Sequence record: PQ351811
Length of the DNA: 64,000 bases
Reading direction: 5' to 3' (one strand)
From: Shigella phage SSG23
The notes under the pieces are model-generated. The model was not told where the DNA came from. It worked only from the letters and a program-made list of their open reading frames with translations, and searched no databases. The translations under genes were made by a program, and so were the position numbers. Positions 3,490-50,823 of the stretch are shown one piece after another (position 1 is the stretch's first letter; every line of letters starts with the position of its first letter).

Positions 3490-3519
3490 TTGACAGGGGA
3501 TCATCGATCCCCCTATAAT
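3490..3519 (+). promoter_or_regulatory. PeSL-like early promoter with spacer hairpin
   Basis: ttgaca 3490-3495, palindrome ggggatcatcgatcccc, tataat 3514-3519. Confidence 0.65.
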
Positions 3520-21983: not shown

Positions 21984-22011
21984 TTGACAGCGTGATTTAG
22001 TGGCCTATAAT
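21984..22011 (+). promoter_or_regulatory. sigma70-type promoter
   Basis: ttgaca 21984-21989, 16-nt spacer, tataat 22006-22011. Confidence 0.6.
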
Positions 22012-22329: not shown

Positions 22330-22604
22330 TGGACAAGAAAACTGCGTTAATGGTTTACATGCTACGCGAAGACCACGGTCTTAATTTTGTTGATATTGCT
22401 AAGAAGATTGGCGGGATCAGCGGACAAGATGCGGCTAAGGCATGGTTGATGGTAAAAGACGCACGCGAGGCTTACGCCAACCGTGAAAAGGTTGTTTATC
22501 GTAAACACCACATCAACAAAAAATTTAAAAATAAAGTTCAAAAACGGGTTGACAAGCCAAATAACACTGTTATAATGGACGCATTCAAACGGGCAATGTC
22601 CTGA
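22329..22604 (+). CDS. small basic protein, possible HTH DNA-binding (91 aa)
   Basis: ATG 22329 overlaps upstream stop (TGATG); LNFVDIAKKIGGISGQDAAKAW helix-turn-helix-like segment; basic C-terminus. Confidence 0.45.
   Translation: MDKKTALMVYMLREDHGLNFVDIAKKIGGISGQDAAKAWLMVKDAREAYANREKVVYRKHHINKKFKNKVQKRVDKPNNTVIMDAFKRAMS
22549..22576 (+). promoter_or_regulatory. sigma70-type promoter inside the 3' end of the preceding gene
   Basis: ttgaca 22549-22554, 16-nt spacer, tataat 22571-22576. Confidence 0.55.
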
Positions 22605-45574: not shown

Positions 45575-47377
45575 TTAACCTACCCTTAGCCAACGATAGA
45601 CAGTTCTGTATGGAGGAAGAATACCCATCATTGATGGGTCAGTATTTCCCTGATTAACTTTTACGGTATCCTCGCGGTATTTGGTAAATGCTGGACCTAC
45701 TGCATCAGGGTCTACCTGACAACCGCCGATAATAATATTTCCGTTATCGTCTTTTACAAGAACTCGATCGTTGCTCTGTAATTCAGGAATCATATTTTTC
45801 TTGATCTGATATGCAACATCACCACCATTACCACCTGCGGTGTGTGTAGGTTGACCATGTGTATCGAGATCGTTGTTGTTTATTGCGAAGTTTTGATCGC
45901 TTGCATCGGATGACCAACCAGCCAGAAATTCACCTTCCGCATACCGTACCCATGTACCAAATCCCATATAGGTCGCTGGGTTGGCTGGGTTATGCGCATT
46001 TTCATAAATTGTACCTACAGGATGGAAAATGTCGAATATGGAATAGATATCCATCACACGACCTGTATAATCCTCCATTGGACGTTTAGTCGCTTGGCTT
46101 GGATTCAGGAAATCGGTATATTCAATTCGATTTGTCAGAGTAACTTCATCTTCGTTATTGAGATAAATTTTATCTGCTTTCTCTTTAATACCGCCTACAC
46201 CGTCCCATTCCATTAATGTTCCGATATCATTATTAAACCAGCGAATTGTGATAGTGTCTCGGTTATCCAGTGCTTTAGATAATTTAATACCAGTCACTAC
46301 ACTGTTTTCGTCAAACATTAATGAATAATCTTCGCCAGATTCCACCCATTGACCGCCAGCAAGCGCACAAGTTTCTTCTGTTTCGCCATCAGCACCCTCA
46401 CACACAAAAGAAGGTAAATCCGCGTCACCAGCTTTAATCATTTGCGTGCCGTTGATCAGCAATTCAAATGAATTTGGATTAATAAGATCTCGCTTACTTA
46501 CTCCCAATTCAGAATTGGTAAATTCTTTCTTATTCGCAAGTTCCCCAACCCAAACTTCACCGGGGATAGATTCCAAAGTGGTCATTCCGGTTTCATAAAC
46601 TCGGATTGTGTGGGTAATATAACTTGACCGGAAGGATGCGATCCCGTCCATATAAGTGATGATTTGAATGGTATCACCTGCCGAGCAAGGGAAGCGTAAT
46701 TTAATGCTTTTACCGTCCAGTGGGACAATATCACCGTTTTCACCGATAGAACCGTAGTTAGAATCATCGGTCAGATCCTTACCATAATAAAGCAAGTTAC
46801 CGCGATAATATACTTCAACATTTCGAATATTGTAAGTATTGGAACCAAACACATTGGGGAAGTCTGTTTGTCCTTCGGTTGCGATATAAACTTCTTTGGC
46901 GACGGTGCTTAAATCGGAAGTTGTTATAGTGTCAACTCGTTTATTTTCGACATATTCCCACCGACCGGGTGCACAATAAACCAATTCAACATCCATGAAA
47001 TCTTTATATAATTCACGGTTGATTGGCGACCCTTTAATGGTATCACCTTGTGCTGGCTTCAATGTTACGTTATGTGCAGCCCATGAGCGCCAAACATCAC
47101 GAAGTTTAATTGTTTTATTATAATCACTCGCGCTTCCTTTAGGCAATTCAACAGAAACAGCGTTGTTCGTTGTATTAATCGCCCATGCATCACCAAAATT
47201 TGGTTTTAATACTGGTTGTGTGTGAGTTTTCCACGCGCCGGATGCATGAGGGATATCACCATCCCCCAGCTTAGTATAAAGTTCAGAAAAGTTGTCATTA
47301 ATCTTTTGACCACCTTTTCTTAGATAATCACCTGTACCGTCATCAACAACGTTACCGATATTAATTAATTGTTTCAT
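45575..47377 (-). CDS. 10: baseplate wedge protein gp10
   Basis: gene order and size. Confidence 0.8.
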   Translation of the reverse strand: MKQLINIGNVVDDGTGDYLRKGGQKINDNFSELYTKLGDGDIPHASGAWKTHTQPVLKPNFGDAWAINTTNNAVSVELPKGSASDYNKTIKLRDVWRSWAAHNVTLKPAQGDTIKGSPINRELYKDFMDVELVYCAPGRWEYVENKRVDTITTSDLSTVAKEVYIATEGQTDFPNVFGSNTYNIRNVEVYYRGNLLYYGKDLTDDSNYGSIGENGDIVPLDGKSIKLRFPCSAGDTIQIITYMDGIASFRSSYITHTIRVYETGMTTLESIPGEVWVGELANKKEFTNSELGVSKRDLINPNSFELLINGTQMIKAGDADLPSFVCEGADGETEETCALAGGQWVESGEDYSLMFDENSVVTGIKLSKALDNRDTITIRWFNNDIGTLMEWDGVGGIKEKADKIYLNNEDEVTLTNRIEYTDFLNPSQATKRPMEDYTGRVMDIYSIFDIFHPVGTIYENAHNPANPATYMGFGTWVRYAEGEFLAGWSSDASDQNFAINNNDLDTHGQPTHTAGGNGGDVAYQIKKNMIPELQSNDRVLVKDDNGNIIIGGCQVDPDAVGPAFTKYREDTVKVNQGNTDPSMMGILPPYRTVYRWLRVG

Positions 47378-48228
47378 GTAGCAACCCCGATTTTAATAGT
47401 GTCTACGGCTTTAACTGCTAAACGAATATTTTCGCCAGTAGCCTTATACTCTGCATATACTTTATCGCCGGAACCGATGAAATAACGAACCGTGTATAGT
47501 TCATCTTCTGTCTTCTGCAAAACTGTATATTCCGTCGCATAAACTTTTCCGGCTTTAGAATCAATCATCAGTAGCGTTTCACTTGAACGCATTTTTGAAC
47601 CGGATATATTGCTAGCGGTAGTTAATAATTTGATGGAAACATATTCTGTTTTTGCGGCAATAGCAACGTTTGTTGCTACTCCAGTTACGTTAACTGTTTT
47701 ATCTAATGGCGTTGTTGTATCGGTAAACATACTTTCGATACCCAATCGCCATGTTACGCGACTACCTTCAACGGCAGTACACCAAACGGTGACTTTTGAA
47801 AATGGTTGTGTTATTGTAGCATCACCGGAATACCCGCTAATAGAATCACCTGCTTGAGTTCGAATATTGAGCGGTGTCGTCGTTGAAAGGCTACCGTTAC
47901 TATTTATGAATACAACACCCTCACCAACCTTTGCTTTAGGGAGGATAGCAATAAGTGCGCCTTGAGTTGTATCGATATCGTGTAGACTCCCAATCTCAAC
48001 AGCGGAACCAGCGTAGCTTTGGCGTGGATGCTTCTGATAGTATCCGGTTGCATGAATAACCATTCTTCCTACACCGTGGTCTACGTCTTTAAACCGTTGA
48101 TCAGCAAATGCGTCATATATTGAATCAAAGTTATCGTTAATTTTATTACCGCCATCATATAAGATATCGCCAGTCGATGGATTGCCGACCGTACCTGTGT
48201 CTATTCTTTTCTTTGGAACTTGTGCCAT
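47374..48228 (-). CDS. 9: baseplate wedge / long-fibre connector gp9
   Basis: gene order and size; own late promoter. Confidence 0.8.
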   Translation of the reverse strand: MAQVPKKRIDTGTVGNPSTGDILYDGGNKINDNFDSIYDAFADQRFKDVDHGVGRMVIHATGYYQKHPRQSYAGSAVEIGSLHDIDTTQGALIAILPKAKVGEGVVFINSNGSLSTTTPLNIRTQAGDSISGYSGDATITQPFSKVTVWCTAVEGSRVTWRLGIESMFTDTTTPLDKTVNVTGVATNVAIAAKTEYVSIKLLTTASNISGSKMRSSETLLMIDSKAGKVYATEYTVLQKTEDELYTVRYFIGSGDKVYAEYKATGENIRLAVKAVDTIKIGVAT

Positions 48229-48255: not shown

Positions 48256-48263
48256 TATTTATA
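48256..48263 (-). promoter_or_regulatory. T4-type late promoter TATAAATA for gp9
   Basis: tatttata on + strand, 28 nt upstream of the start. Confidence 0.65.
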
Positions 48264-48273
48264 AAATACATAC

Positions 48274-48299
48274 AAAAAAGCCGCCCACAAGGACGGCTT
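48274..48299 (-). terminator. terminator closing the inserted three-gene cassette
   Basis: agccgtcc..ggcggct hairpin followed on the - strand by ttttt. Confidence 0.55.
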
Positions 48300-48303
48300 A
48301 TAA

Positions 48304-49143
48304 TTAAATGTCAAACAAGTCTGAGAGCGTCCCAGACGCTGTTTCTTGTTCTGGTAAGGTAATCTCCTTACTTTCTTCTATTTGTTCGTTAGGACGCGAT
48401 TTAGGCGCTTCTACGGCTTCTTTCTCGTAATACCTAACCTCAACCACTTCTGTTAAAACGTTGGTACTGTGCCATTCATCGCGATAGATTGATGTATCGA
48501 TCCCACATCCGGCATAAGTCACCAAACCAGTTTGTTTGCTCCATTTTAGATATTTATTAGACTTCATTGTTCCGTCATAATAAGGTCTACCGGAATAAGC
48601 AAAACCAGCAGAACCAGCAGGAACAATAAAGTAACCAACATCAGCAAACTTCTGGCCTAATGTCATAACCTTAAATTCAAACTCACCGCCAGTATATTCA
48701 AATACATCCTTTGTGTCGGTTGTATTGATTTTCCCGAAAGGTGGATTGCTAATTACAACATCAAATTTTTCGTTTGATTCAAATTCGAATACATCGCTGG
48801 TGATCCATTCTGCTTCCGGTAATAGTCGTTTACCGATCCGCGCAAATTCTGGATTGAGTTCGACGCATACGATCTTTTCTGGCTTACAACGATGCAACAT
48901 ACAGAAAGATAAACGACCGATCCCAGCACACAAATCTAATACTTTTCCGGTGCAGTGTGCGTCAATGGTAAAATCCCATGCAAGACCCTCTGGAGTAAAG
49001 AATGCACCGGAACCACCTAGACCATCTCCATGATAGTTATTATAGCAAAACTCCTTTTCTTCATATGTCAATGGGCGATCTGAATTGATTAGCTCCATTG
49101 CCCGATCGTGTAATTTTTGTTCTTGTTTGGAAAGTCGTGCCAT
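48304..49143 (-). CDS. SAM-dependent amino-methyltransferase, HsdM/gamma-class N6-MTase-like core (279 aa)
   Basis: FFTP, then VLDLCAGIGRL (motif I), then VISNPPFG (motif IV), in gamma-class order; no obvious target-recognition domain. Confidence 0.65.
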   Translation of the reverse strand: MARLSKQEQKLHDRAMELINSDRPLTYEEKEFCYNNYHGDGLGGSGAFFTPEGLAWDFTIDAHCTGKVLDLCAGIGRLSFCMLHRCKPEKIVCVELNPEFARIGKRLLPEAEWITSDVFEFESNEKFDVVISNPPFGKINTTDTKDVFEYTGGEFEFKVMTLGQKFADVGYFIVPAGSAGFAYSGRPYYDGTMKSNKYLKWSKQTGLVTYAGCGIDTSIYRDEWHSTNVLTEVVEVRYYEKEAVEAPKSRPNEQIEESKEITLPEQETASGTLSDLFDI

Positions 49144-49472
49144 TATTTAACCTTTGCTGTTACGGTAACGCTATGCCCCAAATAAACATGAGACATAAAG
49201 AACACAAAGTTTTTAAATTGCGGATTCTTTCGAATAAACCGTTTCAATTTTCGAATACAAGTAATGCTATGGTCATAATTAGAGTAATTAAATTTGATAC
49301 CCTGTTCCATCATCACATTAACTTCATCTTGAGAATGCCACTTCTTATCATGGTCACAAAACCAATAGTTATCATGCCATTTTTCTTGAAGATGCAAGCC
49401 CCAAAACACTTTATACATTGGATGTTTTGGTTTACCCATTGTGTAATGCAGTTTAATATTTACGCGTGCCAT
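49143..49472 (-). CDS. hypothetical His/Trp-rich protein (109 aa)
   Basis: ATG start; stop overlaps the MTase start. Confidence 0.5.
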   Translation of the reverse strand: MARVNIKLHYTMGKPKHPMYKVFWGLHLQEKWHDNYWFCDHDKKWHSQDEVNVMMEQGIKFNYSNYDHSITCIRKLKRFIRKNPQFKNFVFFMSHVYLGHSVTVTAKVK

Positions 49473-49717
49473 TTTCTATCACTCCACATACCGAAAGTTG
49501 GATTATACACAAAATGTATAGCTTCATCAATAGTCTTGAATCGTTTAGTTACGTTAGCGCAATTGATACCCTCCCATAGTTCATCGGTGTAATCGGCTAG
49601 TGATGAATGAGTATGATCGATGAGTTCCCCGATCTTCTCACCGTTCGCGATCACCTCCCAACCGCAAGGGGATACCTGAATTGCTTCACAATTATCTGTA
49701 AATTTACGACGTGCCAT
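49460..49717 (-). CDS. hypothetical protein (85 aa), first gene of the cassette
   Basis: ATG with SD ggagg; sigma70-type promoter upstream. Confidence 0.55.
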   Translation of the reverse strand: MARRKFTDNCEAIQVSPCGWEVIANGEKIGELIDHTHSSLADYTDELWEGINCANVTKRFKTIDEAIHFVYNPTFGMWSDRKWHA

Positions 49718-49746
49718 AATTTATCCTCCGTTGTTTATATGTGTGT

Positions 49747-49774
49747 ATTATACCTTACCAAATAAGATTGTCAA
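49747..49774 (-). promoter_or_regulatory. PeSL-like early sigma70 promoter on the - strand inside the late baseplate cluster
   Basis: - strand reads ttgaca, 16-nt spacer, tataat, then acacacatataaacaacggaggataaattATG. Confidence 0.6.
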
Positions 49775-49786
49775 CACCCAAAATAG

Positions 49787-49816
49787 AAAAAGCCAACTCT
49801 CTCGAATTGGCTTTTA
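49787..49816 (-). terminator. terminator-like hairpin after gp8
   Basis: agccaa..ttggct hairpin with a T-rich tract on the - strand. Confidence 0.45.
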
Positions 49817-49827
49817 AAATCATACAC

Positions 49828-50823
49828 TTAGAACTCAAACAACACAGAAACAAGCTCTGTTTGATCTAATGACCGAACGATAGGTTGTCGGTTTTCCATG
49901 TAGATCATTTCTCCTGAGTGTGGCTCTAAATCCTGTGGTTGATATTTGTCTTTAATCGCTTTAACGTCTGGGTCGCTAGGACGTGCTTTCTTCTCTAATG
50001 GATTAAGGATAATACTTAACTGACGGAAGCCAGTATTACCCACTAACGCTGACGTTGGGAATTGTGCGGAATCCATATAAGCCTGAAAACGCAAAGTTAC
50101 TACTTTCAGCCGATAAAGCAGATTATAGTCATTATACCAGGTGATCACATTGTCATAGCCCCAACGCGCCGGATCTTGTCGCAGTTCATCAGGGAACGGC
50201 ACAACAATATGCTCGTTGGTGCAACGGTTGATCGCCGCATCAGGCGGAATTGTGTACAAATATTCCCAACGATATCCGTCACCCATATCAATAGAATCGC
50301 CTTTCCCTACTGGTGGCGCGATTGATTCATGCGTAGGGGTCCATTTTCCACCCAATTTCAAACACTCTACTTTAGCGTCAATGCTTGAAATAGAACAATA
50401 ACCGCGATCAGGAACATCTGTCACTCGATACACCATCCAACCACTACCAACATCTGTACGGTTATATGGTGCAGAGTTTACGACAACAATGTCATTGATA
50501 AAGAACGTGCGCGGGTTATCCTGTCCGGTATCACCCCAATCTTTACGGGGGATAACCGCATCAAGAAGTGATTTGTTAATCTTAACCGCCCCCATCATAT
50601 GGGTCCACATATCAACAACGCCAGCCGTTGAATCGGTCGGATAAGGTGGGGCAAAGCCCACCTCTTTTTCGTTTTCTGACCACGGCTCCGAACGTCCAAA
50701 CGTTCCATAAATTGTAATTTGATTTGCCCCATCGCCTACAGAATTATAGAAATTCAGAAGTTTTTCTGTTCTGAATTTACTAGTAATGATTGAGCGATAG
50801 ATCACACTATTTTCATTAGCCAT
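49828..50823 (-). CDS. 8: baseplate wedge protein gp8
   Basis: gene order and size. Confidence 0.8.
   Translation of the reverse strand: MANENSVIYRSIITSKFRTEKLLNFYNSVGDGANQITIYGTFGRSEPWSENEKEVGFAPPYPTDSTAGVVDMWTHMMGAVKINKSLLDAVIPRKDWGDTGQDNPRTFFINDIVVVNSAPYNRTDVGSGWMVYRVTDVPDRGYCSISSIDAKVECLKLGGKWTPTHESIAPPVGKGDSIDMGDGYRWEYLYTIPPDAAINRCTNEHIVVPFPDELRQDPARWGYDNVITWYNDYNLLYRLKVVTLRFQAYMDSAQFPTSALVGNTGFRQLSIILNPLEKKARPSDPDVKAIKDKYQPQDLEPHSGEMIYMENRQPIVRSLDQTELVSVLFEF

Follow-up and report, generated by a model that had tools for sequence, protein, structure and literature searches.

The window analyzed here, a 64,000-nucleotide (nt) stretch of the genome of Shigella phage SSG23 (sequence record PQ351811), carries three genes on the minus strand between the baseplate genes 8 and 9, encoding proteins of 85, 109, and 279 amino acids (aa) in that order (Table 1). 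Gene calling, Pfam matches for gp8 and gp9, a scan for signals, and direct reading of the sequence confirmed all of the coordinates given in the initial annotation of this DNA, and its description of an insulated early-promoter unit within the late baseplate operon was borne out by a promoter matching the sigma70 consensus at 12/12 positions, two sites at which a hairpin is followed by a run of T's, and a separate late promoter for gene 9. The first two open reading frames (ORFs) of the cassette overlap by 13 nt, and the ATG of the third overlaps the TAA of the second, such that the three genes look translationally coupled. Each of the three proteins starts with MAR, encoded by ATGGCACG. Neither the cassette nor its signals are new. 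What is new, and the most informative feature of the cassette, is the clamp-type tail at the C terminus of the 279-aa protein, which the initial annotation had overlooked. We consider it probable that the locus is an early operon bounded by a promoter-early stem-loop (PeSL), fixed in Krischvirus, that provides an early-expressed, clamp-tethered orphan DNA adenine methyltransferase.

TABLE 1 Genes, signals, and protein motifs in the gene 8-gene 9 interval of the window
Feature	Coordinates	Strand	Details
Gene 8, baseplate wedge subunit; late, 5' neighbor of the cassette	49828..50823	-	Pfam Phage-Gp8, E=8e-144; PHROG 977
Stem-loop of the candidate PeSL, resembling an intrinsic terminator, 3' of gene 8	49788..49815	-	12-bp stem and 4-nt loop, then T-rich TCTATTTTGG; terminator in the GEC-3S annotation
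Predicted early sigma70-type promoter of the candidate PeSL	49747..49774	-	-35 TTGACA, 49774-49769; 16-nt spacer; -10 TATAAT, 49752-49747; promoter in the GEC-3S annotation
Shine-Dalgarno (SD) sequence GGAGG	49725..49729	-	7 nt 5' of the ATG of the 85-aa gene; read from the sequence
85-aa ORFan, first cassette gene	49460..49717	-	PHROG 16603, E=2e-56
109-aa ORFan, second cassette gene	49143..49472	-	PHROG 12630, E=1e-67
279-aa stand-alone NPPF amino-methyltransferase, third cassette gene	48304..49143	-	PHROG 3820; catalytic core, aa 1-245
Motif X, FFTP, aa 48-51	48991..49002	-	Invariant in 27 relatives; at least 90% conserved in 75
Motif I, VLDLCAGIGRL, aa 68-78, S-adenosylmethionine (SAM)-binding loop	48910..48942	-	G74 and G76 invariant
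Motif IV, NPPF, aa 133-136 (NPPFG, 133-137), catalytic amino-methyltransferase motif	48736..48747	-	N133 and P135 invariant in 75 relatives
Acidic, proline-containing disordered linker, about aa 241-271	48331..48423	-	Predicted local distance difference test score (pLDDT) below 50 for aa 248-273
C-terminal octapeptide TLSDLFDI, aa 272-279, putative gp45 sliding-clamp-binding motif	48307..48330	-	Resembles the end of RB49 gp43
Intrinsic terminator closing the early cassette	48270..48299	-	9-bp stem (48299..48278) with 6 GC pairs, then TTTTTTGT; annotated in GEC-3S
T4-type late promoter TATAAATA for gene 9	48256..48263	-	Read from the sequence
Gene 9, baseplate wedge tail-fiber connector; late, 3' neighbor of the cassette	47374..48228	-	Pfam T4_gp9_10_N, E=1.5e-40

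The 279-aa protein is a stand-alone NPPF amino-methyltransferase with its motifs in gamma order and without a separate recognition domain. FFTP, VLDLCAGIGRL, and NPPFG follow one another in this order, as had been read initially, and proved to be invariant or nearly so among relatives. An AlphaFold model built with 27 relatives (pLDDT, 81) consisted of a confident Rossmann core with N-terminal helices (residues 1 to 245) and a disordered region (residues 248 to 273). It contained no C-terminal target recognition domain, because the core ends at about residue 245 and the remainder is disordered, in agreement with the earlier judgment that the protein is too short to hold one. Neither HsdS nor HsdR is encoded near the methyltransferase gene, the neighbors of which are gp8, gp9, and two ORFans without similarity to HsdS.

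Profile and fold searches against Pfam, NCBIfam, PHROGs, PADLOC, and the PDB fixed the class of the enzyme and were split between DNA and RNA families. Residues 1 to 250 aligned with positions 1 to 246 of the 255-position profile of PHROG 3820 (E=1.9e-117), the name of which, "DNA methyltransferase," is an annotation only. The best Pfam families were MTS (RsmC/HemK type; 38.6 bits), Methyltransf_25, and Eco57I (PF07669; 28.4 bits versus a cutoff of 25.3, over residues 117 to 194), and N6_Mtase (PF02384) reached 16.7 bits versus a cutoff of 20.4, with only residues 121 to 146 aligned. MTS was matched by 60 of 75 relatives, and N6_Mtase was matched at E<1e-3 by 18 of them. The top PDB profile matches were PH1948 (8.6e-8), RsmC (1.2e-6), Ta1320, and 3lpm, and the best matches among solved structures combined the RNA enzymes METTL5 and PH1948 with the DNA enzymes lmo1582, M.TaqI, and HsdM. 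The best PADLOC match was the mad2 DNA methyltransferase (E=5e-17), and the nearest PHROG and BFVD neighbors were DNA methyltransferase and helicase giants, with DarB-like and giant DNA methyltransferase families among the PHROG neighbors. No NCBIfam model, including those for RNA methyltransferases, came near its cutoff. With N6_Mtase below its cutoff, MTS as the best Pfam family, and structural matches that mix RNA and DNA enzymes, the protein could no longer be called "HsdM-like," as it had been at the outset.

The protein is annotated as a "release factor glutamine methyltransferase" in phages E26, Makalu_002, kaaroe, kvi, and ECD7, which would make it a PrmC/HemK-like protein glutamine N5-methyltransferase with release factors or ribosomal proteins as its substrates. 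HemK, too, has an NPP(F/Y) motif, and TIGR03534 was matched weakly (E=1.7e-9). However, this match scored 37.5 bits versus a cutoff of 199.1 and aligned only the SAM-binding half, the N-terminal domain of HemK is absent, and the clamp-type tail and DNA methyltransferase context described below also speak against such an activity. A place in the HemK family had been named in the initial annotation as an outcome that would count against a DNA substrate; the profile score does not put the protein there. We regard a PrmC-like role as highly improbable and the database label as unsupported, and the annotation is corrected here.

Following the acidic linker, the methyltransferase ends in ...ETASGTLSDLFDI, and RB49 gp43, the polymerase, ends in ...EKVASLTDLFDI. 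The last five residues, DLFDI, are exactly the same in the two proteins, and over eight residues TLSDLFDI and SLTDLFDI are related by S/T swaps. The RB49 gp43 tail aligns in turn with the RB69 gp43 tail, ...EKKASLFDMFD(F) (SLFDMFDF), and T4 gp43 ends in ...EEKASLDFLFG. It is through C-terminal tails of this type that gp43 attaches to the gp45 sliding clamp. Similarly, gp33 and gp55 contact gp45 via C-terminal motifs of the LDFL type (PMC9690074). The methyltransferase has the sequence hallmark of such a gp45 client, i.e., a hydrophobic-acidic peptide at the very C terminus, similar to the one on the cognate gp43 and placed after a flexible linker (pLDDT below 50). Among the window ORFs scanned and 17 proteins of the RB49 replication region, no other protein has a DLFDI terminus. 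Recent copying of the tail from gene 43 was considered and set aside, since the 17/18 nt that are identical over DLFDI and the stop codon make up a stretch too short and too constrained by coding to be told apart from convergence. At the 3' end of RB49 gene 43 (740-800 in our extract L017), a TATAAT element and a GC-rich hairpin (a PeSL) directly follow the stop codon, such that the codons for the clamp tail of the polymerase abut a recombination-prone element.

Relatives in other phages carry tails of related kinds. In KP15, the methyltransferase ends in SDLFTFTIE, gp43 in SLNDLFGDW, gp33 in TLDGFM, and gp55 in TLEDFL; the corresponding ends in RB16 are NLFTFTIE, SLNTLFGDDW, TLDDFM, and TLEMFL. 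Judged by sequence, these methyltransferase tails are of the same motif class and are not copies of the polymerase tails. Outside the T4-like phages, tail-bearing relatives end in ...YQLTLF, ...EQLALF, ...PQLSLFA, ...QQLDLFGEAA, or ...GQLALGL, and QLxLF, which is found on such relatives, is the canonical bacterial beta-clamp motif. Among 78 tail-bearing representatives at 50% identity, 14 had Q[LF]xLF in the last ten residues (mean of 0.04 and maximum of 2 in 2000 shuffles of the tails), and 25 matched a looser clamp pattern (0.24 in shuffles). The linker varies in length and sequence among relatives and is absent from versions encoded by prophages, and the clamp motif class is retained while the linker diverges. 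That the tail follows the type of clamp available, gp45-like in T4-like phages and QLxLF elsewhere, is hard to explain without clamp binding, and since a clamp client acts on DNA, the tail also tips the choice of substrate toward DNA. Taken together, these observations suggest that the tail binds the gp45 clamp and that the enzyme methylates DNA at the replication fork. We know of no methyltransferase among gp45 clients, and our literature search returned neither one nor any description of a phage or bacterial methyltransferase with a clamp-binding motif.

Two further C termini deserve mention. That of gp8 (49828-49854, minus strand), ...ELVSVLFEF, has a superficial likeness to clamp-type tails that is probably structural and coincidental, and RB16 RNase H (rnh; L018, 13650-14585) ends in ...MFEKLSDF, which may be another gp45-type motif.

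A freely diffusing, site-specific orphan DNA adenine methyltransferase would have no need of a tether, and its tail would then be a product of chance, a degenerate remnant, or a decoy competing for the clamp. The lack of a tail in the prophage versions and the differences between the methyltransferase and polymerase tails of RB16 and KP15 fit this alternative. In addition, small phage methyltransferases can be sequence specific on their own, as illustrated by T4 Dam at 259 aa. We nevertheless think it unlikely, because DLFDI ends both this enzyme and the cognate polymerase but none of the other proteins examined, because the bacterial clamp motif is independently enriched in distant relatives (14/78 versus 0.04), and because the class of motif persists even as the linker diverges.

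The distribution of the family bears further on its substrate. We found 1729 close relatives and about 359 family clusters (50% identity, E<1e-30), and nearly all are stand-alone proteins of 230-300 aa. The methyltransferase is present in 289 phage records, 231 of them outside Krischvirus and without the 85/109-aa pair. In Krischvirus, it always lies at the gene 8/gene 9 junction, and in RB16 and KP15, it lies between replication genes 41 and 61.1/61; further hosts of the family are Cronobacter, Citrobacter, Aeromonas, Sinorhizobium, and Dickeya myoviruses and jumbo phages. Tail-less versions of 236-242 aa form the last gene of Citrobacter and Enterobacter prophages. The closest relatives of the window enzyme are tail-less prophage versions (54-61% identity, versus 43-50% for other T4-like phages), which hints that the Krischvirus enzyme may have been taken from temperate phages and gained its gp45-type tail later. 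The tail-less versions closest to the Krischvirus enzyme occur in Pantoea, Mangrovibacter, Salmonella, and Citrobacter. A relative ending in KQLTLF is encoded in an element with an integrase and a relaxase, beside C5 and N6_N4 DNA methylases. Some others, among them P0131 (389 aa) and A0A384ZXJ6 of Dickeya phage JA29, are fused at the C terminus to a partial N6_N4 (beta-class) DNA methylase segment, which seems from its sequence to be without a catalytic motif. Thus, relatives that are fused to an N6_N4 methylase segment, placed among replication genes 41/61, or located beside DNA methylases lean toward a DNA substrate.

The same searches can be read in favor of an RNA methyltransferase, forming m6A or m2G in rRNA or tRNA in the manner of METTL5/PH1948, RsmC, or TrmN6, and acting early to alter host translation or to shield RNA from a defense nuclease. 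MTS is the best Pfam family (38.6 bits; 60/75 relatives), PH1948, RsmC, Ta1320, and 3lpm head the PDB profile matches, the enzyme lacks a recognition domain, and the RB49 GenBank note reads "similar to rRNA guanine-N2-methyltransferase." Furthermore, the substrate-facing loops YTGxEFExK, PQGSAGFxYSG, and GCGIDTS are conserved from Sinorhizobium phages to E. coli phages, as would be expected for one conserved cellular target. However, a clamp-binding tail would make no sense on an RNA enzyme, least of all one that changes with the type of clamp; the neighbors and fusion partners are DNA methyltransferases and replication genes; and no NCBIfam RNA methyltransferase model came near its cutoff. 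An RNA substrate therefore appears improbable, and we infer that the 279-aa protein is an orphan N6-adenine DNA methyltransferase. Our literature search found no characterization of this family and no methylation motif for Krischvirus or Slopekvirus; as far as the literature searched goes, the family is annotated and uncharacterized.

The signals upstream of the cassette fit a known type of unit. Arbiol et al. (2010; PMC2839356) described about 50 PeSL units in RB49 and phi1, each made up of a stem-loop and a consensus sigma70 promoter with AT-rich DNA upstream of it; an SD sequence and a start codon come next, and the units usually lie 5' of ORFans. Strong promoter and terminator activity was demonstrated for several of them, and their proposed roles are to keep early transcription out of late virion genes and to allow modular gene shuffling; a few lie within the virion module, beside genes of unknown function (PMC2839356). 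At 49747-49816, we found a consensus promoter, an adjacent stem-loop, and non-core ORFs downstream with an SD sequence and a start codon, and a stem-loop located before the -35 element is among the five placements published for PeSLs. The unit thus fits a PeSL, and from the sequence and the PeSL paper (PMC2839356), we infer that the cassette is expressed early. By our own arithmetic, a perfect 12/12 promoter is expected by chance about 0.02 times per 64 kb on both strands, and only 7 near-perfect sigma70 sites occur within the window. At the other end of the cassette, the gene 9 ATG lies 28 nt from the late promoter TATAAATA. We found no mention of gene 8, the baseplate, or a methyltransferase in PMC2839356, and the gp8/gp9 junction is not discussed in the PeSL papers.

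Elsewhere in the window, further near-perfect sigma70 promoters lie at 1358-1386, 3490-3519, 21984-22011, and 22549-22576 on the plus strand and at 17997-17970 on the minus strand. Two of these have a G/C-rich hairpin, TTGACAGGGGAGGATAACTCCCCTACAAT, between the -35 and -10 elements, and the promoter at 21984 is preceded by a hairpin, as in the gp8/gp9 unit. These sites look like further PeSLs of published subclasses.

The cassette is noncanonical relative to T4 yet not new. A 3.6-kb region around it is 100% identical to Shigella phage SFHK24 (Krischvirus, RB49-like) and 93-96% identical to 57 other records, all from Krischvirus (RB49, phi1, JSE, GEC-3S, and others). The three genes are located between genes 8 and 9 in 58/58 Krischvirus records, and at least 80% of the 3.6-kb query is covered in 57/58. 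In contrast to this layout, gene 9 directly follows gene 8 in RB69, Klebsiella phage Miro, and Aeromonas phage phiAS4, so that the insertion is a fixed genus-level feature. In the RefSeq record of GEC-3S, the promoter with its -35 and -10 elements and the two terminators are annotated already. In the RB49 GenBank record, the cassette genes are ORF140w-143w, and a 2006 comparison (PMC1524935) counted RB49ORF143w among novel ORFs, giving it a "methyltransferase small domain." Hence, the view that the cassette departs from the canonical T4 layout stood, given the adjacent genes of RB69, Miro, and phiAS4, and its novelty did not, given its presence throughout the genus, the GEC-3S annotation, and the earlier papers (PMC1524935; PMC2839356).

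A Krischvirus-like metagenomic phage (L015/L016) carries a simpler arrangement at the same junction, consisting of gp8, a hairpin, TTGACA-16-TATAAT, the methyltransferase, a hairpin, TATAAATA, and gp9, without the two small genes. Its gp8 is 88% identical and its methyltransferase is 65% identical to those of the window. In L015, the late promoter directly follows the terminator, and the hairpin on the gp8 side has the same architecture as in the window.

The 85- and 109-aa proteins matched nothing in Pfam, NCBIfam, or PADLOC, and neither resembled HsdS or any known DNA-binding family in Pfam, PHROGs, NCBIfam, or PADLOC. The 85-aa gene occurs in 61 phage records, all from Krischvirus and Vequintavirus, and the 109-aa family comprises only 5 clusters among 5.8 billion proteins. 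In Vequintavirus FV3, ORF023/024 are the 85/109-aa pair, with no methyltransferase beside them, and among Escherichia phage records outside Krischvirus, at most 9 have the methyltransferase and about 27 have the pair. The 13-nt overlap (...KWHA*/MARV...) is kept in both Krischvirus (49143-49717, minus strand) and FV3 (L010, 2756-3330), such that the two genes appear to travel together, translationally coupled, among myovirus groups that are not related to each other. RB49 has two ORFs, ORF140w/141w (L002, 2661-2907), in place of the intact 85-aa gene, owing to a frameshift or a sequencing error, which suggests that the laboratory strain can do without it. The 109-aa gene has two Krischvirus alleles, one in 19 records (about 97% identity) and the other in 39 (about 73%). 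Its neighbors on both sides are more than 90% identical, and the methyltransferase beside it is 97% identical, which points to allelic replacement of the 109-aa gene within the cassette.

This distribution bears on whether the three proteins act together, with the two small ones giving specificity to the methyltransferase core or regulating it, as HsdS does for HsdM. The shared promoter, the translational coupling, the lack of a recognition domain, and the presence of all three genes in 58/58 Krischvirus records would suit such a partnership. Against it, Vequintavirus has the pair and no methyltransferase next to it (FV3 ORF023/024); the methyltransferase is found by itself in RB16 and KP15, in prophages, and, at this very junction, in the metagenomic phage; the 85-aa gene is frameshifted in RB49; 109-aa alleles only 73% identical stand beside methyltransferases that are 97% identical; and neither small protein is like HsdS or a known DNA-binding family. 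Joint action is thus largely refuted by gene distribution, and we hold the chance that it applies to be slight. The suggestion in the initial annotation that the small proteins might be specificity partners is not supported, on the same grounds: 231 other phage records, prophages, and the metagenomic phage have the methyltransferase and lack the pair. The small proteins are probably independent early accessory factors, an assignment that we make with low confidence. The simplest history is that the promoter-methyltransferase cassette came first and that a mobile two-gene ORFan module was inserted later.

These findings can be combined in one scheme. Host sigma70 RNA polymerase would start at 49774-49747 right after infection and produce one short tricistronic mRNA for the three translationally coupled genes, the small-gene pair having presumably been inserted between the promoter and the methyltransferase. 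The upstream hairpin would block or attenuate transcripts arriving from genes 6-8, and the downstream terminator (48299-48278) would keep early transcription out of gene 9, which would be served by its late promoter TATAAATA. The 279-aa enzyme would carry out SAM-dependent N6-adenine methylation of DNA, tethered to gp45 on replicating phage DNA by its acidic linker of about 30 residues and TLSDLFDI, such that nascent phage DNA might be methylated as it is synthesized. The clamp would supply DNA affinity and processivity in place of a recognition domain, and the benefit may be protection of progeny DNA from some host restriction-type defense with a fixed short target.

Several observations weigh against this scheme. 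RB49 virion DNA, which has been reported to be unmodified, is a substrate for DraI, HpaII, and NheI (PMC4041780), and Krischvirus TB34, the methyltransferase of which is 97% identical to the window enzyme, is still restricted by BREX (PMC11341690). Methylation, if any, is therefore not blanket, and blanket nonspecific adenine methylation is ruled out. Krischvirus already has a Dam methyltransferase, the tail-less prophage versions imply that catalysis does not depend on tethering, the enzyme lacks a recognition domain and the literature search yielded no target motif, and the methyltransferase tails of RB16 and KP15 resemble, but do not copy, the polymerase tails. A separate report described a complete difference in cytosine modification between SAP and TB34, Krischvirus phages that are 99.96% identical, with no modification genes identified (PMC13390438); the window methyltransferase, being of the adenine type, is unlikely to be behind it.

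If the methyltransferase rides the clamp, this would explain how a 245-residue core without a recognition domain serves a genome that is copied hundreds of times within minutes. A DNA-modifying enzyme would then join the known clients of gp45 and the beta-clamp, and a terminal clamp motif would serve as a simple rule for predicting, from sequence, coreplicative orphan methyltransferases of phages and of conjugative elements. It is conceivable, if somewhat doubtful, that PHROG 3820 as a whole consists of widespread mobile-element DNA adenine methyltransferases in which a recognition domain is replaced by a tether fitted to the clamp type of the element, i.e., tails of the gp45 type where the element is a T4-like phage and QLxLF beta-clamp tails where it is another phage or an integrative/conjugative element. 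Were this the case, methylation would be coupled physically to DNA synthesis and be complete before host restriction acts, and DNMT1-PCNA would have its first counterpart in prokaryotes or viruses. Taken alone, the cassette is nothing unusual for Krischvirus and illustrates how the PeSL mechanism lodges early accessory genes in conserved late operons.

Several known systems resemble parts of this locus. Like the PeSL cassettes of RB49 and phi1 (PMC2839356; Comeau et al. 2014, PMC4122927), it has a sigma70 promoter with an adjacent stem-loop and an AT-rich stretch upstream, which would insulate early ORFs from late virion genes, but a full PeSL is found only at its upstream boundary, the downstream one consisting of a terminator and then a late promoter. 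Among DNA enzymes, the M.TaqI/Eco57I family is approached through the Eco57I profile, which scored above its cutoff; M.TaqI, however, has a C-terminal recognition domain, whereas the phage protein has none and a core of only about 245 aa. It differs from HsdM in lacking the HsdM N-terminal domain and an HsdS partner and in scoring below the N6_Mtase cutoff. The small rRNA m6A methyltransferases METTL5/PH1948 are its best structural and PDB profile match, with an NPPFG motif and a similar size, but the phage protein has no gene for a TRMT112-like partner, has an N-terminal helical extension and a clamp-type tail, and is found in the context of mobile-element DNA metabolism. With the orphan methyltransferases T4 Dam and the P1 DarB-type methyltransferase-helicase it shares being phage encoded and having no cognate nuclease; T4 Dam, unlike the window protein, is of the alpha class, and, unlike the DarB type, the window protein is neither packaged nor fused to a helicase. 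The T4-family gp45 clients gp43, gp33, and gp55 likewise have an extreme C-terminal hydrophobic-acidic peptide after a flexible segment. Finally, a functional parallel, as far as can be judged from the tail, would be DNMT1-PCNA, in which a DNA methyltransferase has a short clamp-binding peptide that would couple methylation to replication (PMC9690074), although DNMT1 is a huge, multidomain cytosine-C5 enzyme with an internal PIP box and is unrelated in sequence to the phage enzyme.

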